The translations under genes were made by a program, and so were the position numbers. Source: Zootoca vivipara (Eukaryota). From it: DNA of 64,000 nt. Each line of letters opens with the position of its first letter. The stretch's first letter is position 1. The stretch lies in assembly GCF_963506605.1 (NCBI RefSeq), contig NC_083278.1:73718001-73782000 (forward strand), written 5' to 3'. Positions 1,658 to 59,742 of the stretch are shown one piece after another. The notes beneath the pieces were generated by a model, which was not told where the DNA came from, did no database searches, and saw only the letters and a program-made list of their open reading frames with translations.

Positions 1658-2969
1658 CCCCTAAGACAGCTCGGTTCTTTATCGCATCAGCATCACTTTC
1701 CCTCTTACCTTAGGCATGGGGAAGCTCAGCCCAGGCTCCTATCCAGCCCATGAGACTCTCCCTGCCTAGAATATGCCTCCTCGCTAGGCCACACCAGTTC
1801 TCCTCAGGTTACATCCCTCACCAGCCTAGAGGCAGGCAGTACACCAACACAATGCCTATCCTGTCCAGAGCACCCCATTTTCAGAAACACACACTCCAAA
1901 CCTGGCAAAGGCTGCATTGGGTTCTTGGTGATGATATTTTACGTATGGTGCTTTATAGATGTGAGCCACCTGGAACTTGGAAGAGCCAGGATAAAAATAA
2001 GAGGGAGGAAGGGAAGTCCATTGCATCCATTACTTGACACCAGCCAAACCAAGTGGAGAACAGTACTCCCTAAGGGATAGTGCCTCCCATTCACATATAC
2101 ATTCATACGGGTATGTTAGAAGCAATATTCCCTATGGTGTGTCTGGTTTCATAGTGCTGGGTTTCATAGTGCTTCAAAAACCTGAAAAAGCTACTGGGCC
2201 AAACCATCAGATCAAAGAAGCAAGGAAACCCTGCTCTATTGCAATGCCTTCAACTCTCTTAAAAGCTATTGTTTGTCTCCATCCTTAGATGCATTCTGTT
2301 TCATGCTGGTAAAATGAAGCAATGCCACGATCCGCCCTCTTAATATGAATCAGGCAGTGTAGGCTATTCATTGTCAACTGTGTACAGGTAGGAGGGATAA
2401 ATGCATTTCTTTATTATGAATCAATATTTCACTTCAAAACAAACCTCAATGTGGTTTAGAATAATATATGTAAACCACAATAATATATGTAGTAACACAG
2501 CAGCAGCAATAATAATATCTCAACAGAGCATCACATTTGCTGCATTGTACACTATCTTCCATTTGGGCACTGCTGTCACATTAAAGAGCTTATATTTGTA
2601 TAACTCCAGGTTTTGCTTCTGGTAAAATCCATTTCTCATCAACTTTACATGGATCAAGGTGAAACCTGGAAATGACACCCACGCCACCTTTTGTTTAGAC
2701 TGCCACCACTTTTTTTACAAGCATGCTTGCAAATTTTGCCTTAGGTCATAGCACAAGAGCTACTACAGCCAACAGACTTTATAAATGACCTGTCCACATT
2801 CTCTAGCTAGGTTCAGATGAGCTTGCGGTCGACAAAAAATATGTATAAAGTGGCATAGTTCATGCTCATGTACTTTTGAAAATCAGGAACTGCAGAACTC
2901 ACCATCAACAAAGTCACAGATTCATAGTCTGTGTCTACTATTACTGTTACACCACTTTTTATTGCTCAT

Positions 2970-3696
2970 AGAATCATAGAGTTGGAAGAGACCACAAGGG
3001 CCATCCAATCCAACCCCCTGCCAAGCAGGAAACACCATCAAAGCATTCTTGACATATGCTGTCAAGCCTCTGCTTAAAGACCTCCAAAGGAGGAGACTCC
3101 ACCACGCTCCTTGGCAGCAAATTCCACTGCCGAACAGCTCTTACTGTCAGGAAGTTCTTCCTAATGTTTAGGTGGAATCTTCTTTCTTGAAGTTTGAATC
3201 CATTGCTCCGTGTCTGCTTCTCTGGAGCAGCAGAAAACAACCTTTCTCCCTCCTCTATATGACATCCTTTTATATATTTGAACATGGCTATCATATCACC
3301 CCTTAACCTTCTCTTCTCCAGGCTAAACATACCCAGCTCCCTAAGCCATTCCTCATAAGGCATCGTTTCCAGGCCTTTGACCATTTTGGTTGCCCTCTTC
3401 TGGACACGTTCCAGCTTGTCAGTATCTTTCTTGAACTGTGGTGCCCAGAACTGGACACAGTACTCCAGGTGAGGTCTGACCAGAGCAGAATACAATGTTA
3501 CTATTACTTCCCTTGATCTAGATGCTATACTCCTATTGATGCAGTCCAGAATTGCATTGGCTTTTTTAGCTGCTGCATCACACTGCTGACTCATGTCAAG
3601 TTTGTGGTCTACCAAGACTCCTAGATCCTTTTCACATGTACTGCTCTCAAGCCAGGTGTCTCCCATCCTGTATTTGTGCCTTTCATTTTTTTTGCC
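2970..3696 (-). mobile_element. CR1 LINE, 5'-truncated (end of ORF2 plus 3' tail)
   Basis: ORF 2974..3705 has CR1 ORF2 motifs (CEKDLGVLVD, LVRPHLEYCVQFWAPQFKKD, LEKRRLRGDM); minus-strand 3' end ttccaactctatgattctatga. Confidence 0.95.
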
Positions 3697-3702
3697 CATG
3701 AG

Positions 3703-4100
3703 CAAGGATGGGCCAGTGTATCAGTTTCCATTTCAGTTTCTCATTTCCCCCCAACCCTCAGTGCAGTTCTTCACATTTCCACATCAGTTTGCTTAAAAAC
3801 CAAAAAAAGAGGTCATCATGGAAATTCATCAGCATTTTGACACAAATTTCTCATTATATGCACGTGTTAGCATGTAATTTCCCCAAATATACTCATTTTT
3901 GGAAAAGCAGTTGTCTCTGATATAATGCATTTCCATATGTCCTTTTTACTAGTATATGCATTTGTGTGTTTATTACTTGGCACTGCAAGATTCAGAGAAG
4001 TCCAAAATTTGAAGGATGGATATGTTGCAGTCACCAAAATTGATAATTAGGTAGGTTCATCTTTAAATGCAAAGTGAATTGAATTTCTCCCCCATCCCTA
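3703..4100. mobile_element. hAT-like non-autonomous element
   Basis: Termini caaggatggg ... cccatcccta; right flank ctcaagag (4101-4108) matches left flank ctcatgag (7/8) once the CR1 is removed. Confidence 0.55.
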
Positions 4101-4923
4101 CTCAAGAGGTTTTGAATAGCAAAACATTTGTGCCACCATTCAGACATTTCAAAGCATGTGCTCTCTTTAAAAACAAAAACAAACCTTGAAAATTAAACTT
4201 TGCACCTTAGAAAATAATGCTATTTATTTATTTAAAATATTTATATCCCATTCTTCCATCATAACAAGATGATCCCGTAGAGGTTTTCCATTTACAATAA
4301 AATACATAAACAAATAAGCATAGACAACAACAACAAAAATCTAAAAATACTATGTATCATTACATCTGGCTTTGTGGCTCAGACTAGCAAAGCTTAAGAC
4401 TTCAAAGAGGTTTTCATTCAGAAGACCTGAATTCTAAGCCCAACTGCAATTTTAAGGATCATTTATGCAGTTAAAAAAGCAAACTAGCTTTTTGGATTAT
4501 CTCCTAGGCCCTGCTTTGGTTGATCGAATCCAAATCTGAAGTTTTCAATGGACTTGTCTGGACTCATCCCAGCAGGTTATGAAAGGAAAATGTGGTTTTC
4601 ATGATGTGCCAAAAGGAATAACAATTTGCAGAATTCTATATATCCCAGATCCCATTCTGACTAAAGATGAACATTAAAAATAGGAAGACACCAAAACAGA
4701 TATAATTAACTGTATCTCAAACAGTTTATGCCTTGTGACTTCAATTTACTTCTGAAAATAATTCCCTCAGATATATCTATTTAGAAATCTGAATATAGAA
4801 TAGAAGACCTCCCAAATTGGAAATATCATATAGGGTGCTTTGTAAGAAAATGATTAGGTTTAGTGCTAAGGATTTAATCCCAGGGTTTACTGAGAATTAA
4901 CTTCCATTCTGCTTTTAATACGG

Positions 4924-6029
4924 TGTCGTGGAAATTTGGTCCCAAAATGCGCTTCCCTGTTAGAGGGACAGGCGCGGCTTGGAAGCTCCGGGATTGCGCT
5001 TGGTTCGCCTCCGCCGGGAAAATGACAGAGACCACGCGTTGCTGTCAGTGAAAACAAACAGATCCCTTTATTGAAAAAATGCAGAAAACTACAGCTGTAG
5101 GGTCCCTGCCTCTGGAAAGAAGGAAGGGCCCCCGGGAAATGGTGAAGTCCCCCTATATACCCTCCTGTTCATGCATGGAAATCTCTGGACTAGGAGGGAG
5201 GGGGAGACAAGGGCGACGGGTGGGAGATCGGATTAGCTGGGTGCGGAGATGACTTCTCCTTTCAGATGGAGAGATGTCAATTGCTCTTCTCCTGTCGCTG
5301 ATGGTGCTCCCTGTTGTTTGGCAGGAAGGGCAATCAGTCGAGATGGGTGCAGAGGTGGGGCAGTTCCTGGCGATTTCCATGGGGTGGAAGTCCGCCCGGC
5401 AGTGTTTTCCTCCAGGCCATGGAAGGGTGGGCTACGTTGAGGATGGCAATTTATTTGAATAAAGTTGTTCCAGCTAATCCCTCTATTGTCCGTGTGTCCT
5501 TGAATGGGTATAGGGTGGTAGTAGGGCAAGGTTCAGGTGGGTTGGGATCATACAGGGTTCATACAGAAAATATACCTGGAAAACATACCTAATGCAGGGA
5601 TTTCTAATTAAAAGGTAGCAGTCCTGACATATACAGTTCTAAGATATAAAACAGCAATTCTAATACAGAGGCAGCGGATAGAGATTTCATGGTAAGAGAA
5701 CATATAATAGGCTGTATTATTAACTTGAGTAGAAAAGTTTAACTTTGGATTTGGGCGGTTTCCCCCCCCCTTCTTCTGGAAACATTGTTTTGTTCTGGGC
5801 GGAGGGGAGGTGGAGAGGGGAAATGTGTGAGTTTATGCTAACTGTTGTGCATATGCAGATCCTTAAGCCTTCCTTCAGGCAGGGTCGAGTCCTAGCTGGA
5901 GGGGTGGGGAGACAGGGAAGATGGCATTGAACAGGATTCTGGGTATTGCAGCTGTCAAATTCTGTCACCCCTCTCTGTTCATTAATAATGGTGTCCTGCA
6001 AACCCCCCCCCCAATATGATTTTATAACA
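4924..6029 (-). repeat. ERV 3' LTR (1106 bp)
   Basis: tgtcgtggaa...tataaca; minus-strand TATATA (5154-5159) and AATAAA (5067-5072); abuts the PPT. Confidence 0.95.
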
Positions 6030-6040
6030 GCCCCCTCTCT
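6030..6040 (-). promoter_or_regulatory. Polypurine tract
   Basis: Minus strand AGAGAGGGGGC immediately before the 3' LTR. Confidence 0.85.
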
Positions 6041-6249
6041 GAGGCAATATTGTTGTGTAACAACCAATCATTGCCTCACATAATATTCTCCATTTCCCAG
6101 GTGGTACATTGGCACAACCTAGGGGTATGTGGTGGCGGCTCAAAGGGGGCTTGGGAGAAGCATTTTATAAGAAATGGTATATGCCTTACATTACCGGGAA
6201 GGTCCACCAATGACTGAAAAATGCAGTTTCCTTGGAGTTTGCCTTTTGT

Positions 6250-6680
6250 GTGTTCTCAGGTGTAAAAGTTAGCTTTCTGGTCCCACACCTCCATCATGGC
6301 ACAGCAGCAACAATCCCTGGTGAATCCCCTTAGGGCTTTCATATCGACCATGTCACCTGGCACTCACCATAGCTGCCACAGGTTTGGGCATGTCATGAGA
6401 GAGATGCCTTTGCCTTGGGCTTTCTATGGGATTTTTTTATTATAGGCTCTGGTCTTGCACTGTAGTAGGGAGTTGCTCAGTTACTCTTAAAGGGAGAAAG
6501 CTACTTGCACCTTGGATACACTTGCCCAATTAGAACTGACCCAATTATAATTTATACAGCCCCATAAAAACCATTCTGAAAAGGGCACATGTCCAAATTG
6601 GTCAATTTAATTCTATAAGGAATCATTCCAGGTAAATCAAGGCATATACACCTTCTTGTATCTGCTGGTTTCATGAATCC
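6250..6680 (-). pseudogene. Decayed integrase-like remnant (end of core and C-terminal domain)
   Basis: Minus-strand peptides LDLPGMIPYRIKLT..DMCPFQNGFYG, PGDMVDMKAL and KGIHQGLLL resemble the retroviral IN motifs W..LP.AL..IR.TP..GLSPFE..YG, PGDWVYVK and WKGPY.VLL, with stops and frameshifts. Confidence 0.45.
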
Positions 6681-7103
6681 TGAAACTGCTTCTTGGTATG
6701 GCGGGGGCCCCTTCAGTGGGGTGACGATAGGCATTTGTCGGGGTGCTGTGCTGTCACCCTTCAGCTTCTTTCGGGCGCTCTCAAAGATATCAAGGTACCT
6801 AATCTGGAGGGGGTACTGGTCTTCTAGGGCGACACGCAACGCGGCCAGTCGTTGCAGATTAAAGGATCCCTCCCTTATCCATCGCAGTTCTGCGGGCTGC
6901 CTTGCAGTAATTTTCACCCAATCTTTTGTGCAGAGTTTCATCAATTTCGTTTGCGATATTCCTTTCCCCTCTGAAAGGACGTCCCAGTGGTTGAGGACGT
7001 ACTTCAGCGGGCTGTCAGTGTTCAGGCGAGAAGTAAGCTCCGGCGGAGCTTCCTTCTCCCCTGAAGCCTGCAGCGATGTCCCTTTGGACAAGGGTGCACC
7101 CAT
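6552..7103 (-). CDS. gag: Truncated retroviral Gag: myristoylatable matrix plus PPPY late domain (183 aa from ATG at 7103)
   Basis: Kozak aaaATGG; MGAPLS (MGxxxS); SPLKYVLNHW, LCTKDW, WIREGSFN and QIRY match the gammaretroviral MA pattern (TPLSLTLDHW/FCS.EWP/WP.EGTF/QVPY); PPPY at 6696-6707; no CA or NC. Confidence 0.85.
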   Translation of the reverse strand: MGAPLSKGTSLQASGEKEAPPELTSRLNTDSPLKYVLNHWDVLSEGKGISQTKLMKLCTKDWVKITARQPAELRWIREGSFNLQRLAALRVALEDQYPLQIRYLDIFESARKKLKGDSTAPRQMPIVTPLKGPPPYQEAVSGFMKPADTRRCICLDLPGMIPYRIKLTNLDMCPFQNGFYGAV

Positions 7104-7794
7104 TTTTGCCCTGGTCAGTCTCCGAAGGGGCACTTGCGCAAGTTCTAGCCCTGGGCAGTCTCCGACGGGGCTTTGGGGTCTCTCGGGGTTCTGGGGACTC
7201 CTGGGGAACCTGGGGCACGTCTAAGGAAGGTGGACAGACTCCGATAGGAAAGTGGACCGACTCCGATAGGAAAGTGGGCTTGGGAAGGTTTGCTAAAGGG
7301 CTCTCTAAGGGAAAATGGGGTTTGGAAAGTCTCCTTAGGAAAACGTTCTAGGAAAGTGGGCACACTCCGAGGAGGACTCCTACTCCCACCCAAAATTTAA
7401 TAGTGCCACAGCAATCTCCCTGCCTTTTACACTCTAGACTCAGGTCCTACTGAACGCTTGCCCACGCAATGCCAGATCGGACCTGAGGAATGCAAAGTAG
7501 GAAAAGGGAACGGGCGCACTTGCAATCTCTGGTCATGGGTCATTCCTAAGAAAGGTCGCCATGGCAGAGGGGCGTCTTCACCCGGGATAGCTAAGCGAGA
7601 AAAGGGAGAGTTGCCAAGGCTTGCTATCTGGGCAAAACTCCGACGGACAACAAGCCTTGGGGAGGAAAAGGGCAGCCGCAAAACCTTCCAGCCTGGGCAG
7701 ACTCCGACGGGCTTTGGGTTTTTTGGCTATGAAAATAGGAAAGAGTTTGATTGCTGTGACAATTCCCACCCCGAAAAGCCAATTCCCTATTGAT

Positions 7795-7800
7795 ACTCAC
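7795..7800 (-). promoter_or_regulatory. Candidate ERV major splice donor
   Basis: Minus strand AAC|GTGAGT in the leader between PBS and gag. Confidence 0.55.
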
Positions 7801-8046
7801 GTTGCAGCGCGCTGCCTTCTTTTCCTGAAGCTTGGTCACCTCGCAACAATCAGGAGAAGAAAATCTTGTAAAAATCAACCCCCCACGGCCGTCTGGATCC
7901 TGTTTGTTTTCCCTGTGTGGTCCCGCTAAGGATCCCAGTTAGGCCAGAACTCCAGGGACAGTCAGGGAAGGAGATCCCCCCTGCAAATGGCTGGGTGCGC
8001 TTGGGCCCTCCAACCACGGCTCCCCCAGAGTACGGCTAAACGAAGG

Positions 8047-8064
8047 CTCCTGGCTGGCTCGCCA
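8047..8064 (-). promoter_or_regulatory. Primer binding site, tRNA-Arg(ACG)
   Basis: Minus strand TGGCGAGCCAGCCAGGAG is complementary to the 3' 18 nt (CTCCTGGCTGGCTCGCCA) of vertebrate tRNA-Arg(ACG); lies 5 nt from the 5' LTR. Confidence 0.9.
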
Positions 8065-8069
8065 TAAAC

Positions 8070-9177
8070 TGTCGTGGAAATTTGGTCCCAAAATGCGCTT
8101 CCCTGTTAGAGGGACAGGCGCGGCTTGGAAGCTCCGGGATTGCGCTTGGTTCGCCTCCGCCGGGAAAATGACAGAGACCACGCGTTGCTGTCAGTGAAAA
8201 CAAACAGATCCCTTTATTGAAAAAATGCAGAAAACTACAGCTGTAGGGTCCCTGCCTCTGGAAAGAAGGAAGGGCCCCCGGGAAATGGTGAAGTCCCCCT
8301 ATATACCCTCCTGTTCATGCATGGAAATCTCTGGACTAGGAGGGAGGGGGAGACAAGGGCGACGGGTGGGAGATCGGATTAGCTGGGTGCGGAGATGACT
8401 TCTCCTTTCAGATGGAGAGATGTCAATTGCTCTTCTCCTGTCGCTGATGGTGCTCCCTGTTGTTTGGCAGGAAGGGCAATCAGTCGAGATGGGTGCAGAG
8501 GTGGGGCAGTTCCTGGCGATTTCCATGGGGTGGAAGTCCGCCCGGCAGTGTTTTCCTCCAGGCCATGGAAGGGTGGGCTACGTTGAGGATGGCAATTTAT
8601 TTGAATAAAGTTGTTCCAGCTAATCCCTCTATTGTCCGTGTGTCCTTGAATGGGTATAGGGTGGTAGTAGGGCAAGGTTCAGGTGGGTTGGGATCATACA
8701 GGGTTCATACAGAAAATATACCTGGAAAACATACCTAATGCAGGGATTTCTAATTAAAAGGTAGCAGTCCTGACATATACAGTTCTAAGATATAAAACAG
8801 CAATTCTAATACAGAGGCAGCGGATAGAGATTTCATGGTAAGAGAACATATAATAGGCTGTATTATTAACTTGAGTAGAAAAGTTTAACTTTGGATTTGG
8901 GCGGTTTCCCCCCCCCCTTCTTCTGGAAACATTGTTTTGTTCTGGGCGGAGGGGAGGTGGAGAGGGGAAATGTGTGAGTTTATGCTAACTGTTGTGCATA
9001 TGCAGATCCTTAAGCCTTCCTTCAGGCAGGGTCGAGTCCTAGCTGGAGGGGTGGGGAGACAGGGAAGATGGCATTGAACAGGATTCTGGGTATTGCAGCT
9101 GTCAAATTCTGTCACCCCTCTCTGTTCATTAATAATGGTGTCCTGCAAACCCCCCCCCCCAATATGATTTTATAACA
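8070..9177 (-). repeat. ERV 5' LTR (1108 bp)
   Basis: Near-identical to 4924..6029; TATATA 8300-8305 and AATAAA 8213-8218 on the minus strand. Confidence 0.95.
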
Positions 9178-10067
9178 ACGGCATAGCCAATTTCTTCACA
9201 TAAAAAAGGGATGGGGGAACAGTCAGCTTCCTAAGATCAGAATAAAAAGAACAACAATTGAATGAAATTTGCATCTCTGAAAACCCAAATTATATTTGTG
9301 AGTAATCAGTGTATTAATTCAGGGACTTTTCTATGGTGCTAATCACTGTCATTATGTTTCTGAGCACTTCAGATGCATTAATGAATTTATTCTTGTAGCA
9401 TGCTTGTACAAAAGAGCAGTGCTGTTCCAGTTTAATAGATGGTGTTTTGAAGCACAGGGAGAAGACGTAGTTGATGTAAAGTTGCCCAAAAATTCTGACC
9501 CGCTGTTTGAACAAAGAGCTCTTAAATTCTGCTCTAAATCAGCAGGAATGCGCTGGGCACTGGCGTGATCATTACATCAGCTTCTGCAGTTCAGATGCAT
9601 ATTTGTCAAATGCAGAGCGTGAAACAATAAGCAACTTGTTTCCGTTTATGTTACCCATGCTATGGCTTCTGTTGTGTTCAGAACAAATTGGTTCGCATTG
9701 ATCAGCGGATGAATGGTGAACGAAATCAAAGTGAGCAAGAATCAAAGTGATTTCATCTGATTTTATATCAGGGCAAAGGTGCACTTTAGATATTCAGAAA
9801 ACAGAGGCAATGCTTGCTTAACTGCCACTTGACACAAATTGGGAAATTGCCATCTTGCTGCCACCACCACCCTGCCACTGCCACTGCCACTGCCGCCTCC
9901 CTTACCTGGGTTGTGGGGCGGCGCTTGCAAAGCAGAAATCTTGCCAGTGGTGGAGGTGCCCACAGGTGTGCTATCTCGTGGGCTTCCACTGCACAAGGCA
10001 GCTGCCTCAGCCTGCCTCATAGGTAGGCCAGCTCTGTCAGAAAATGAATAGAGTCAATAGACCATTA

Positions 10068-26949: not shown

Positions 26950-28260
26950 GCTCATTCCTGCCCCCACGCGGATCACATTCCTGCGTCGTGGCGCATGTGT
27001 GGGAGGGGATGTAAACGAGGGAAATTTGAACAAAAGGTGGGGATCGACGGCTTCCGGGGGGGGGGCCAACTAAACCTTCGGCAGGAAGGAGAAAGCCACT
27101 GCTGGGATTAAAAACCTGCAGATGGAAAGAGGGCTTCCCTCTCCCGCCCTGCGCACACCCAAACCCCGCTAGGCAGGATGCCACACCCTGCAACCCACCC
27201 CATGCTTTGGAGAGGGGCAGGAACATGCGGTGCAGCACCAACTCCCTGCTTTGCTTTTGCATCCTCCCTCCTCAGCGCCAGAGTCCCTTCCCCTCGCGCT
27301 GAGGGAGGGCAGCGGATTTCTCGAGGAGGAAGGCGGCGGCAGCCCCAGCGGACGTGCATCTTCGCCTCAGAGCTGCTCTTCCCCCCACCCACGCTGTTGT
27401 CGTCTTCGCCGCTGCCTCTCCCTACCAGGAGTGCAGGCAGAGGAGGCTTGAAAACCTCCCCCCCCCAAAAAAAATTTCCCCTCCCACCTACTCAAACCGC
27501 GAGGCGACTCCATCTGGAGCCCTACATCACGAGGGGCTGAGAGGAGGCGGCGGCAGAGCGGGAAGAGCAGGAACCCGTGCCGTCGTCGCCGCCTCCCTCC
27601 CGGCCGCCCCCCGGGGAGCAGCTCTGCCGGAACTGAGAAGCCAAAGGGCGGCTTGGGGTGGGGGGCAGAGCAAAAGCCAGGCACCCTCCCGAGTGTCTAT
27701 GAGGAGAAAACGGGGGATGAGGGAATCAAGAGAGCGACTGTTGCGCTTCGCCTACTTCCCCCTCAGGCTCACTCTGCGTCCCTTTCGCCCGCTCGCTCGT
27801 CCACCTCCCGGATGCAGCCGAGGAGAGGAAGGGAAACGGTGGGCGGCGGCTCCCCAGTGCCGCCTCACTCGCTCTCAGAGACAACAGCAAAGCCCCCCCA
27901 AAAAACCCCCAGCGCTGCTCCATCCCGGCACCAACTTTGCCGGCGGCGCCTGTAGGGCTTTCCTACCTCCTCGGCGGGCTTCCTCCTCCTCCTCCTGCAT
28001 CTCACTTCCCCGTCTGGCCGCTGTGCCACCACCTCCCTCAGCCTCATTCGAAATTGAAATTCCCTGGCAAAGGCCGTCAGCGCGGCTCCAGCGCCCCGCC
28101 CTCCGCCTGCAGCCCCGCCCCCGGTTTTGACCCTCGGCCAATCGCAGGCTCCAGAACTACTGTCAGTGGTTATTGTCGGTGGCGGCTACGCGGGCCACAT
28201 GACGAGGTCTGGCGGGCCGGATTAGGCCCCCGGGCCTTGTGTTTGACACCCGTGCTCTAG
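26950..28260 (-). promoter_or_regulatory. CpG-island promoter with probable non-coding first exon (likely SIPA1L2 by synteny)
   Basis: CpG-dense; GC box ccccgcccc ~28113-28121, CCAAT ~28138-28142, minus-strand donor GAG|GTAGGA at 27967/27966; gene identity inferred only from the SIPA1L2-MAP10 head-to-head arrangement in mammals. Confidence 0.6.
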
Positions 28261-56829: not shown

Positions 56830-57750
56830 TGCTGCCGCGGATACTGCGCCGTTGCTGGTACAAGCCTCCACCTGCGGCAACGGCCTGCTGTCTAGTAGCT
56901 CCCAGCATTAACACGTCTCTTGGCGGGGGTTGGACTAGATGACCCCTGGGAATCCCTTCCGACACCGATACGGCCTGGAGAGCTTGATCGCAGGAGATTC
57001 CCAGAGGGCTTTGCGGCCGCGGCGTACAGAAGCAGCGATGGCCGCCGGTCGCTAGACAACGGCTTCCATAGAGATAATTATACGCGGAGGCTGGCGCGCA
57101 CGCGCGCGTGTCGCCTCGCTGTTTTTCCCCCCCTCCGGTCTCGTGAGAGCTGTCGACTGTGAGCCGGGATGGAGGACGGCGACGGTTGCGAGGAGAGCCT
57201 GTTCTCGCTGGAGCTGCTGGTGGAGTCGGCTCGCGTGGAGCCGCGGCTGCTGCCGACGCCCATGCCGGCCAGCAGGCCCTTCCGGCCGGCGGTGGCGCTG
57301 CGGCTGCTGGACTTCCCGACCCTCCTGGTGCGCGCCCCGCACTCGGTGCCGGGCCCGCTGGTGCCCTTCGGCCGGGGCAAGTCGTGCCTCTTCCGGCTGC
57401 GGCCGGGCGCCCTCAAGGGTCTCCTGAGGCGCTCCCCGCTCTACGCGCTGTTACTGGCGCTGCCGCCGGGACAAGGCCCCGCCCGCCTGCTGGGCACCTC
57501 CAGCGTCTCCCTGGCGGCCGCCGCCGAGGAGCTGCTGATGGGGAGCGGCCCCGGAGGACGAAGGGGGCAGTTTCCGCTGAGGGACCTGATGGGAGAGCCG
57601 GTGGGAGAACTGGGCCTGAGCTACCGCCTGAGCAACTTGGGGCCCTGCCTGCTGGGGCACTTGGGGCAGGGGGCGGCCCCCGGGGAGCCCCACATCGAGG
57701 AGCGGCACAGACCTCCACCTCGTCCGTCGAGCGTCCACAGCGACAGAGGG
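56830..57750 (+). promoter_or_regulatory. MAP10 CpG-island promoter and 5' CDS
   Basis: CpG-dense; NRF1-like gcgcgcacgcgc ~57094-57105; TCTCGTGAGA (57139-57148), one mismatch from TCTCGCGAGA; Kozak gggATGG. Confidence 0.75.
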
Positions 57751-59742
57751 ATCAACCTGGAGCTCATCCCAGAGGGAGAAGAAGACCAGCAGGACCCTGC
57801 CCCAGAAGGTGGCAGCACGGAGTCCTTAAGCAGCACCCTTACGGAAAAACAGCCCCCCAGCCTTGCTGTGCAGAAAGCAGCCCAAGAGTTGGAGATTTTG
57901 ACCAACATCTTCTGCCCCCCGCCAATGTACTATAGCCACCCGGCTGAAAATTCTTGCTCCACGCCGAAAGCTGCGGCATCAGGGATGGTGTCGGTGGCTG
58001 CACCTCGTGAACCTTTTCCCGAAGAAGAAATCGTCTTTCCCTCTGCAGAGCCTATTAAGGAGGAGCCTTTGAGTAGCGTCCCGGAGCCTCCCTTGGCATC
58101 TCCAGCGCTTAGTAGCCATGATCAGCTCAGACAAACCTTGAGCCAGCTGCCTCTGCTGAATGCTTTGTTGGTGGAACTGTCCCTGCTGAGTAACCAGTCG
58201 CTGCAGCCAGGGCCGTCTACTGTGCACCCTCAGTTAGCATGGCTATACCAAAATGTAGCAGATGGTACAAAAGCCCCACCCTCAAGTGTCAAGAGTTTAT
58301 GCCCCTTCCGGGAATATAAAAAACCCTCTCTTAATCATAAAGACAGAGGAAGGTCTGCTAGCCCAAAGTTAAAAAGAAATCGCCCAGATCATTTAAAATG
58401 CATGTATCCCTCCATGCAAGTTACGAACCCTGGTAAAGGATTCCCAAAAATGGAAAGAAGTGGCAATCTTGAGAAAAACAATACCAAGGAAAACTCTTCC
58501 CCTAGACGAAGGCTTACGTATGGGCTAACAAATACTCTAAAACTTCGTTTGCTGCGCTCCAATCCAGTCATGTTGAAAGTGCATGAAAAAAGGGAACATC
58601 GTAGAAAAAAGCAAGGAGACATCACCATTGAAAGGAAAAGCAAAAGCTCTTCAAATAAAGGGAAACTATTGCGGAGCTCTCCCGAGCGCCATTCAAAGTC
58701 TTCTGGACAATTTGATGAAAAAAGCATCTCTGAAGAAAATGCTCAAATAAATGAAAATGTTGAGACTCTAATACAAAGCAGTACTGACCAAGATTACTCT
58801 GCCCCCATAAAGGGACTAACCTGTGATCTCAAAAAAAAAGTTGCAGCCCGCCGTGTAAAGAGTCATGAAAATGCAAAACACAAGAGCTTTCCTGAAAGTA
58901 TTGGCTCTTCTTATAAAGAAAAGAGTTTGAAAGTCCATCTGCCGAGAGTCTGTTTGCAGGATACTAATGCCCTTGAAAGTAAAATTGATACAGAAGAAGA
59001 AAAATATGTACTGAAAAATAATTGGGATGTTTCAAGCCTTCGTAATGATAGCCAAAGAAACAACTTTGAAAGCAGCCATGGACTTAAGAATTCAAGTGAT
59101 GTGGTTCTTAGCTCTGAAAATGTAGCCTATTCAGAAGATTTCACCAATGCTGACAGTTCATGTACAGCCTTAGAAGCTCAAGAGAACAGCTCTGAACCTT
59201 TGCTAATAAACCCAAATCAAAGCCAGTCTGTTATGGACTCAGATTCTAAAATGTCTGAAAGAAGTTTGACCTCTGAAAGCATTTCACCCCCTGTTCCAGT
59301 TCCCTCAGATAAATCTCCTATCCAATCTCTTAAAAAGACCTATTATTCAAAATTTAATGAAAAAACCACAGGTGTTGCTCTTCATGAATTTGATCATGAT
59401 TCTCCTTCTGCAAGAGTTTCAAAAGAGGAACCTGCAGCTCAGCGGGTCAACAAGGAAGAGAGCAAAGATATGCAGACCTTGGGGGAGGAACAAATTCCCT
59501 CTGAGATAAATAATAGTGTAGAAAAAGACGAATCATCTGTGGAAAAGAGCCAGTCAATAAGGACATCTCAAGTTAGCTCTTACTTGCCCTCCAGTGTGTC
59601 TGATGTTGATCTTAGTGGGTTAGAAGAAAGCAATCCATCTGAAAAAGAAAAAGATGATAATTTTGAGATGGAGGATATTACTAATCAATATAGACACATC
59701 AGTGAATTAGTAGTAAACAAGCTTCCAGGATACACAATGTAA
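57169..59742 (+). CDS. MAP10: Microtubule-associated protein 10 (KIAA1383/MTR120), single coding exon, 857 aa
   Basis: N-terminal LFSLELLVE..AVALRLLDFPTLLV..FGRGKSCLFRL (DUF4497-type region), VHPQLAWLY (HPHLAWLY motif), LTYGLTNTLKLRL, YSEDF, C-terminal ELVVNKLPGYTM; uninterrupted ORF. Confidence 0.95.
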   Translation: MEDGDGCEESLFSLELLVESARVEPRLLPTPMPASRPFRPAVALRLLDFPTLLVRAPHSVPGPLVPFGRGKSCLFRLRPGALKGLLRRSPLYALLLALPPGQGPARLLGTSSVSLAAAAEELLMGSGPGGRRGQFPLRDLMGEPVGELGLSYRLSNLGPCLLGHLGQGAAPGEPHIEERHRPPPRPSSVHSDRGINLELIPEGEEDQQDPAPEGGSTESLSSTLTEKQPPSLAVQKAAQELEILTNIFCPPPMYYSHPAENSCSTPKAAASGMVSVAAPREPFPEEEIVFPSAEPIKEEPLSSVPEPPLASPALSSHDQLRQTLSQLPLLNALLVELSLLSNQSLQPGPSTVHPQLAWLYQNVADGTKAPPSSVKSLCPFREYKKPSLNHKDRGRSASPKLKRNRPDHLKCMYPSMQVTNPGKGFPKMERSGNLEKNNTKENSSPRRRLTYGLTNTLKLRLLRSNPVMLKVHEKREHRRKKQGDITIERKSKSSSNKGKLLRSSPERHSKSSGQFDEKSISEENAQINENVETLIQSSTDQDYSAPIKGLTCDLKKKVAARRVKSHENAKHKSFPESIGSSYKEKSLKVHLPRVCLQDTNALESKIDTEEEKYVLKNNWDVSSLRNDSQRNNFESSHGLKNSSDVVLSSENVAYSEDFTNADSSCTALEAQENSSEPLLINPNQSQSVMDSDSKMSERSLTSESISPPVPVPSDKSPIQSLKKTYYSKFNEKTTGVALHEFDHDSPSARVSKEEPAAQRVNKEESKDMQTLGEEQIPSEINNSVEKDESSVEKSQSIRTSQVSSYLPSSVSDVDLSGLEESNPSEKEKDDNFEMEDITNQYRHISELVVNKLPGYTM

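Follow-up and report, generated by a model that had tools for sequence, protein, structure and literature searches.

Recombinants between a competent endogenous retrovirus (ERV) and a defective parasite are already known from cattle and koala, and also from mouse, so the principle is not new. In mouse ETn/MusD and in rat VL30/MLV, a non-coding element with a helper-like long terminal repeat (LTR), primer binding site (PBS) and leader is moved in trans. The closest described system is cattle ERVK[2-1-LTR], in which competent C-type elements, defective D-type elements and one Recombinant element are distinguished, and recombination between C and D types is read as evidence of co-packaging (PMC10924933). 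Here we analyze a 4.3-kb provirus of the common lizard Zootoca vivipara, located in a stretch of 64,000 nucleotides (the window) of contig NC_083278.1, assembly GCF_963506605.1. The provirus is very young and insertionally polymorphic. It is composed of parts from two families: a coding ERV, which we call the helper, contributed R-U5, PBS, leader and the start of gag, and a non-coding LTR family contributed the 3' interior, the polypurine tract (PPT) and U3. We are fairly confident that this single young mosaic of a gamma-like ERV and a non-coding family was made as a retroviral recombinant, likely when RNAs of both were packaged together and reverse-transcribed in a single round.

Positions within the LTR or within the interior of the window copy are given below as q numbers, as stated. 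Compared with each of six coding proviruses, interior q1-1382, which carries an open gag start, shows 15-23 differences (98.3-98.9% identity), and interior q1372-2040 (669 bp) has 1-3 differences to six young non-coding copies (99.6-99.9% identity). These two segments overlap in an exact 11-mer directly past the PPPY codons. The helper (5.8 kb) and non-coding (4.9 kb) interiors have six 11-mers in common, which is about chance level, and the joint uses one of them. The junction is found once in the genome when a 30-nt junction sequence is searched with at most one mismatch, and the helper-type joint of U5 and PBS occurs seven times, in the six coding copies and in the window copy. Trans-splicing was considered as a source of the interior joint and rejected; there is a pyrimidine run on the non-coding side, but the helper side is without GT at the joint.

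The second joint lies in the LTRs. Informative sites at LTR q642-q899 are all of non-coding type (25, with no helper-type site), and those at q903-q1105 are of helper type in 29 cases and of non-coding type in three. The switch falls about 25 nt past the TATA box, and because this box lies at q873 and AATAAA at q960, it is placed at the probable border of U3 and R, where R likely begins. No relative of the chimeric LTR closer than 97% was found in the genome, and all 39 non-self matches end at q1091. Both LTRs carry the same chimera, therefore a reverse-transcription step is needed. The first-pass annotation had called them near-identical, and their alignment gave no substitution and two single-C indels in poly-C runs over 1108 columns.

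That annotation also had the general anatomy right (Table 1). The target site duplication (TSD), the PBS, the PPT and the interior length of 2040 bp were all confirmed, protease and reverse transcriptase (RT) are absent, and truncated gag is the only coding content. Its statement that Env is missing was nearly correct, except that a remnant of the Env C-terminal tail is present, which was inherited via the non-coding family. The locus thus has TG...CA LTR ends, PBS, PPT, a short TSD and an empty allele, as an integrated LTR provirus does, and with no LTR substitutions, truncated gag only and a gamma-like coding parent it is the very young, non-autonomous, gamma-like provirus that was first described.

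The truncated Gag frame starts with Met-Gly, carries the PPPY late motif and is 98% identical in amino acids (aa) to helper Gag 4-144. It is open and its product is putative; searches of Pfam and PDB gave no match of its own, and the N-terminal part is likely matrix, placed by position only. The helper-type leader likely holds the packaging signal. The PBS corresponds to the 3' end of tRNA-Arg(ACG) plus CCA: a pattern of T-loop and PBS has four genomic matches, and all three loci scanned were called tRNA-Arg(acg). The 3' interior is CpG-poor (observed/expected ratio 0.11), with protein similarity confined to the Env tail. Open reading frames inside the LTRs were treated as chance, with no Pfam match for the five frames scanned.

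Table 1. Features of the mosaic provirus; positions refer to the window unless stated otherwise.
Feature	Position	Strand	Remarks
Provirus	4924-9177 (73,722,924-73,727,177 of contig)	minus	
TSD ACGG, left copy	4920-4923		empty-allele joint 4919->9178 has 4 letters fitting either side
TSD ACGG, right copy	9178-9181		
3' LTR, 1106 bp, chimeric	4924-6029	minus	non-coding-family-type U3, helper-type R-U5
AATAAA in 3' LTR	5067-5072		
PPT	6031-6040	minus	single C between PPT and 3' LTR
Env C-terminal tail remnant	6071-6157	minus	33 aligned aa, 70% to helper Env
3' interior, non-coding-family type	6030-6698	minus	1-3 differences to six family copies
Interior recombination joint, 11-nt microhomology	6688-6698	minus	common to helper gag and non-coding family
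Truncated Gag frame, 183 aa (likely matrix + PPPY)	6552-7103	minus	138 helper-derived codons and 45 codons from non-coding sequence
Leader, helper type	7104-8046	minus	~95% to leader of non-coding family
PBS for tRNA-Arg(ACG)	8047-8064	minus	preceded by helper-type 5-nt spacer
5' LTR, 1108 bp	8070-9177	minus	TATA 8300-8305; switch from U3 to R-U5 type ~8275-8279, conservatively 8234-8279

The coding parent belongs to a small family. Among the best 40 of 492 candidates from a genome search with the interior were the window copy itself, six copies at 98-99% over q1-1382, one at 96%, and 32 that match only in the leader (q4-1058, 95-96% identity). An RT search (best 40 of 45 candidates) gave six copies at 100% and one at 96%, and only these seven exceeded 74%. 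All six helper copies (loci L021-L026, on C16, C8 (two), C2, C13 and C10) have open frames of 694-820 aa for gag, 1251 aa for pol and 666 aa for env, and in all six gag and pol lie in one frame across a single TGA, followed by CAA TCA, from which we infer stop-codon readthrough between them; the gag-pol stop of MLV is TAG. The length of Gag varies apparently via a repeat region past PPPY, and the helper LTRs are unusually long (1553-1739 bp).

By domains and motifs the helper family classifies as a class I gamma-like ERV. The motifs PPPY, CCHC, DTGA, YVDD, HHCC, CWIC, RNRR and CX6CC are present in every one of the six copies. Gag contains the Gag_p30 capsid and a single CCHC finger in all of them, the latter with zf-CCHC below the Pfam cut-off and the motif present. 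Pol consists of an MLV-type RT (YVDD), RNase H and an integrase with MLVIN_C, and its best PDB matches are p80 RT/RNase H chains (E 7e-160). Env is of gamma type in 6/6 copies, with CXXC in the surface subunit, a furin site and CX6CC in the transmembrane subunit; the Pfam TLV_coat match is weak (21.5 bits against a cut-off of 22.5), and a strict immunosuppressive-domain pattern had no match in it. The nearest database proteins to helper Pol are Pols of lacertid ERVs (60-81%). Additionally, over the searched region it is 100% identical to a Zootoca vivipara protein labelled 'NYNRIN-like', so the helper family has been annotated as a host gene.

These copies are young. Their pol genes differ from each other by 0-4 nt, the LTR pairs of all six contain no substitution in 10,076 columns (two pairs are fully identical), and five of the six have exact 4-bp TSDs. 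A recently or currently active helper had been predicted; the idea of a recently active one holds, and these six coding-open proviruses are the candidate for it. The seventh copy, at 96%, has split gag and env frames, three LTR substitutions and a different PBS. A further locus (L083; C3, 64.65 Mb) is a helper-derived leader/gag fragment with more repeat units, fused to a partial helper LTR and without pol and env.

The other parent is a separate set of loci, which the last 661 bp of the interior match at up to 100% identity (best 40 of 253 candidates). Two interior searches returned 253 and 254 candidates; these roughly 250 loci are first-look candidate counts and not verified copy numbers. 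Their interiors, of 5.0-6.3 kb, retain a leader that is ~95% helper-like, the gag start over 40 codons (67% aa) and the Env tail over 32 codons; the middle that these parts enclose is CpG-poor and resembles no protein. A retroviral frame of at least 200 aa is absent inside both sets of 13 examined copies, except for an RT-bearing extra segment in one copy (L065, 6164-7342), whose longer interior has a 393-aa RT-bearing frame and is probably the result of a later insertion. Pfam gave nothing for another copy, L035, in which a 4.5-kb middle (within 2350-7339) is AT-rich and CpG-poor with microsatellites, like captured host DNA. In the search for the source of this middle, no Pfam match appeared in six frames, and apart from copies of the family, neither the window nor the retrieved loci contained a match under 85% identity; its genome matches (best 40 of 254) are 90-100% identical, i.e. 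family-like.

LTR pairs were measured in 20 of 26 non-coding loci. Sixteen of these pairs have no substitution, the total being 9 substitutions in 23,360 columns, and exact 4-bp TSDs are present in 16 of the 20. The measured copies lean young, having been chosen as those that match the window best; the remaining six loci were left out of this comparison, and one of them, L029, had four substitutions in a separate LTR comparison. The family therefore resembles ETn-like or D-type elements in its lack of coding capacity, its helper-like PBS, leader and ends, and its young copies. Among young copies of both families the PBS occurs as an exact tRNA-Arg match, with a one-base change or with a one-base insertion. 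Judging from the recombinants only, the helper likely packages and mobilizes the non-coding family in trans. The first-pass annotation had proposed a defective lineage mobilized in this way; trans mobilization, as far as it can be deduced, stands, and the lineage concerned is likely this separate family of about 250 loci with 5-6.3-kb interiors.

The absence of LTR substitutions puts a 95% upper bound of ~270-1,360 thousand years on the age of the window copy, with yearly rates of 5e-9 to 1e-9 per site that are assumed and not measured. Possible polymorphism of the insertion had also been suggested, and it was found: among seven contig runs (seven samples) compared of 23 listed, the empty site is present in three and the filled site in two, and in the remaining two (X12 and X14) the flanks of the insertion site are not covered. 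In S3 (X4, depth 47) and S5 (X6, depth 22) single contigs skip 4920-9177 with a 4-letter overlap; depths in contig runs were not taken as copy numbers. In S1 (X1) and S2 (X2) contigs enter the LTR ends from both flanks, and no empty joint is seen among the contigs listed. In both runs the left-flank contig 4065-4953 runs into the helper-type U5 end, and right-flank contigs from 9150 run into the non-coding-type U3 start. X2 differs from the assembly at two right-flank sites. In S3 and S5 the sequence flanking the empty site diverges from the assembly by about one letter per 100, and the polymorphism may therefore be a difference between populations. The insertion site can be used as a presence/absence marker between samples. 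In a raw RNA run (X21, of which ~6% was read) 153 reads were seen, most of them 90-99% alike and falling on non-coding-type parts, and none of them is assignable to the window copy.

In the mechanism we propose, tRNA-Arg would have primed on helper RNA, and the strong-stop DNA (R-U5) would have been transferred to the 3' R of a non-coding RNA. RT would then have copied U3, PPT and 658 nt of non-coding interior, before returning to helper RNA at the 11-nt gag microhomology and copying the gag start, leader and PBS. Integration with a 4-bp TSD would most likely have been carried out by helper integrase. Switching between two templates in this manner has been described before (PMC6894440), and the mechanism is also found in PMC10924933. 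The joints, near the likely R start and at an 11-nt microhomology, are as template switching on co-packaged RNAs predicts. The window copy encodes no enzyme and has not spread within the assembly, and it likely documents packaging of the ~250-copy non-coding family by the coding one.

Exchanges between the two families are also seen elsewhere. In a non-coding subfamily with 1.3-kb LTRs (L032 and similar, 1309-bp LTR), ~750 nt of helper-type U3 (about q51-800) lie inside non-coding-type ends; compared with a helper LTR, this stretch has 0-3 mismatches per 50 nt. A solo LTR (L085; C6, 91.78 Mb) has mostly non-coding-type U3, a helper-leaning R-U5 and its own TSD, GTAC, and is likely an older, independent recombinant. 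These two further exchanges point to repeated contact between the helper and non-coding families. A second multi-copy ERV family (L087-L088, C2 8.72-8.73 Mb; 33 matches in the RT search), with many copies of identical score, is ~70% identical to the helper in pol. It has a 183-nt leader segment that is common to both the helper and the non-coding families (~85%) and is possibly a packaging element.

Several observations weigh against this account of the origin and polymorphism of the window copy. The exact helper parent is missing from the assembly, the window copy having 10 differences shared against all six helper copies; six of these fall within 58 nt (interior q1068-1125), where three of the six match the 96% copy and two read as in the window copy in run X5 (S4). 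Three non-coding-type sites (q913, 1092 and 1093) lie inside the helper-type part of the LTR, and the start of R was placed via the TATA box and not from transcript ends. None of the contigs listed bridges the interior junction, and contigs drop rare forms. The empty joint in S4 (X5) is weak, with a depth of 3.4 and 30 letters on the short side. S1 and S2 come from one study, have flanks near-identical to the assembly and may not be independent of it. The second ERV family might be an additional helper. Finally, co-packaging is deduced and not observed, and a chimera formed at the DNA level and transposed once gives the same LTR layout.

This last point is the basis of the strongest alternative, in which a chimeric precursor arose first in DNA, by ectopic recombination or microhomology-mediated deletion involving a helper provirus and a non-coding copy, and was transcribed from the helper 5' LTR, the window copy being its once-retrotransposed daughter. 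It predicts the same LTRs, with non-coding U3 and helper R-U5, as well as the 11-nt microhomology, and the helper donor is unsampled under either explanation. However, the assembly contains no such precursor, the single match to the junction being the window copy, and the two further LTR exchanges are more simply explained by routine co-packaging. We consider a DNA precursor unlikely for these reasons.

Far less probable is that the window copy is a member of an old lineage with a deletion and a decayed integrase that was multiplied in trans, as the first-pass annotation had supposed. The copy is indeed non-autonomous and its 3' interior is CpG-poor and non-coding, but it is a single copy with no others sharing its deletion, and both of its halves are 98-99.9% identical to young families, so the interior cannot be called decayed. 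The supposed integrase remnant had no Pfam match in three stop-masked frames and no tblastn match from helper Pol at E<0.05. The best of 120 Pol-bearing proteins scored 26.9 bits, in antisense, against best scores of 21.6-24.6 bits in five shuffles, which leaves no integrase similarity clearly above shuffles. For this assembly the old-lineage idea is refuted. An assembly artefact or gene conversion as the source of the LTR identity or the mosaic is hardly credible: the region is made of high-copy repeats and its interior joint is spanned by no listed contig, but in two samples contigs lead from the left flank into helper-type U5 and from the right flank into non-coding-type U3, the chimeric LTR has no relative closer than 97%, with its 39 non-self matches stopping at q1091, and a clean 4-bp TSD can be read from the empty allele.

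Recombination between co-packaged helper and non-coding RNAs can be extended into a broader scenario, which we offer only tentatively. The helper may still be infectious or transposing in common-lizard populations, and the non-coding family may be a parasite that repeatedly captures the helper promoter. The helper half of the window copy would then derive from a variant outside the assembly, which could be a virus in circulation, and capture of helper U3 would have preceded the expansion of the 1.3-kb-LTR subfamily.

The provirus likely has the same orientation as a SIPA1L-family gene and lies in its 5' region, upstream of its first coding exon; by vertebrate synteny this gene is likely SIPA1L2. 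SPAR_C exons lie ~75 kb to the left of the provirus on the minus strand, and a 517-codon frame 30 kb to the left reads like a SIPA1L first coding exon, with no match in a Pfam search. A CpG-rich block at window 27001-28000 may be the promoter of this gene to the left. The window also contains an intronless MAP10 gene (57163-59742) and a 3' fragment of a LINE-like ORF2 (2974-3720) without Pfam match, presumably of CR1 type by its resemblance.

The locus provides a clean reptile record in which both predicted switch points can be read. It leads to a very young gamma-like ERV with six coding-open copies and to a parasite family that outnumbers this ERV about 40-fold. We found no description of this lizard system in the literature, most subscription papers being beyond the reach of the search. 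The mouse ETn/MusD and rat VL30/MLV pairs differ from the lizard pair in retroviral class or host.

The helper copies resemble the invading ERVs (ERVi) of Wang and Han 2023 (PMC10435555), with near-identical LTRs and open genes: LTRs are without substitution in all six and fully identical in two, and the genes are intact. The window copy lacks intact gag, pro, pol and env and shares insertional polymorphism with ERVi. Zootoca is present in the genome list of that study (as a 25,252-scaffold assembly) and did not appear in the other supplementary files searched by term. The next closest system after cattle is recKoRV of the koala (KoRV x PhER), in which recombination took place between a young gammaretrovirus and a non-coding element resident in the genome; TSDs are present, some breakpoints have microhomologies, and co-packaging was proposed (PMC6112702). 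In the window copy, too, a microhomology links a helper 5' end to a non-coding element. In contrast, recKoRV exists in many copies that retain the LTRs of KoRV, and the LTRs of PhER are unlike those of KoRV, whereas the window copy is single with a chimeric LTR, and its non-coding partner is itself young and has a leader and LTR of common ancestry with those of the helper.

The likeness to cattle ERVK[2-1-LTR] (PMC10924933) is greater: both systems comprise a coding-competent minority and a gene-less majority with shared ends and an unalignable middle, both show insertional polymorphism, and in both there is one recombinant element. The cattle elements are betaretroviral with a Lys PBS, and their de novo insertions were measured in sperm, whereas the lizard pair is gamma-like with an Arg PBS and its activity is deduced indirectly. 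The ratio in the lizard is more extreme, at 6-7 coding copies to ~250 candidates. The model from cattle in which defective elements displace their helper (PMC10924933) becomes testable in a wild squamate by counting polymorphic and de novo insertions.

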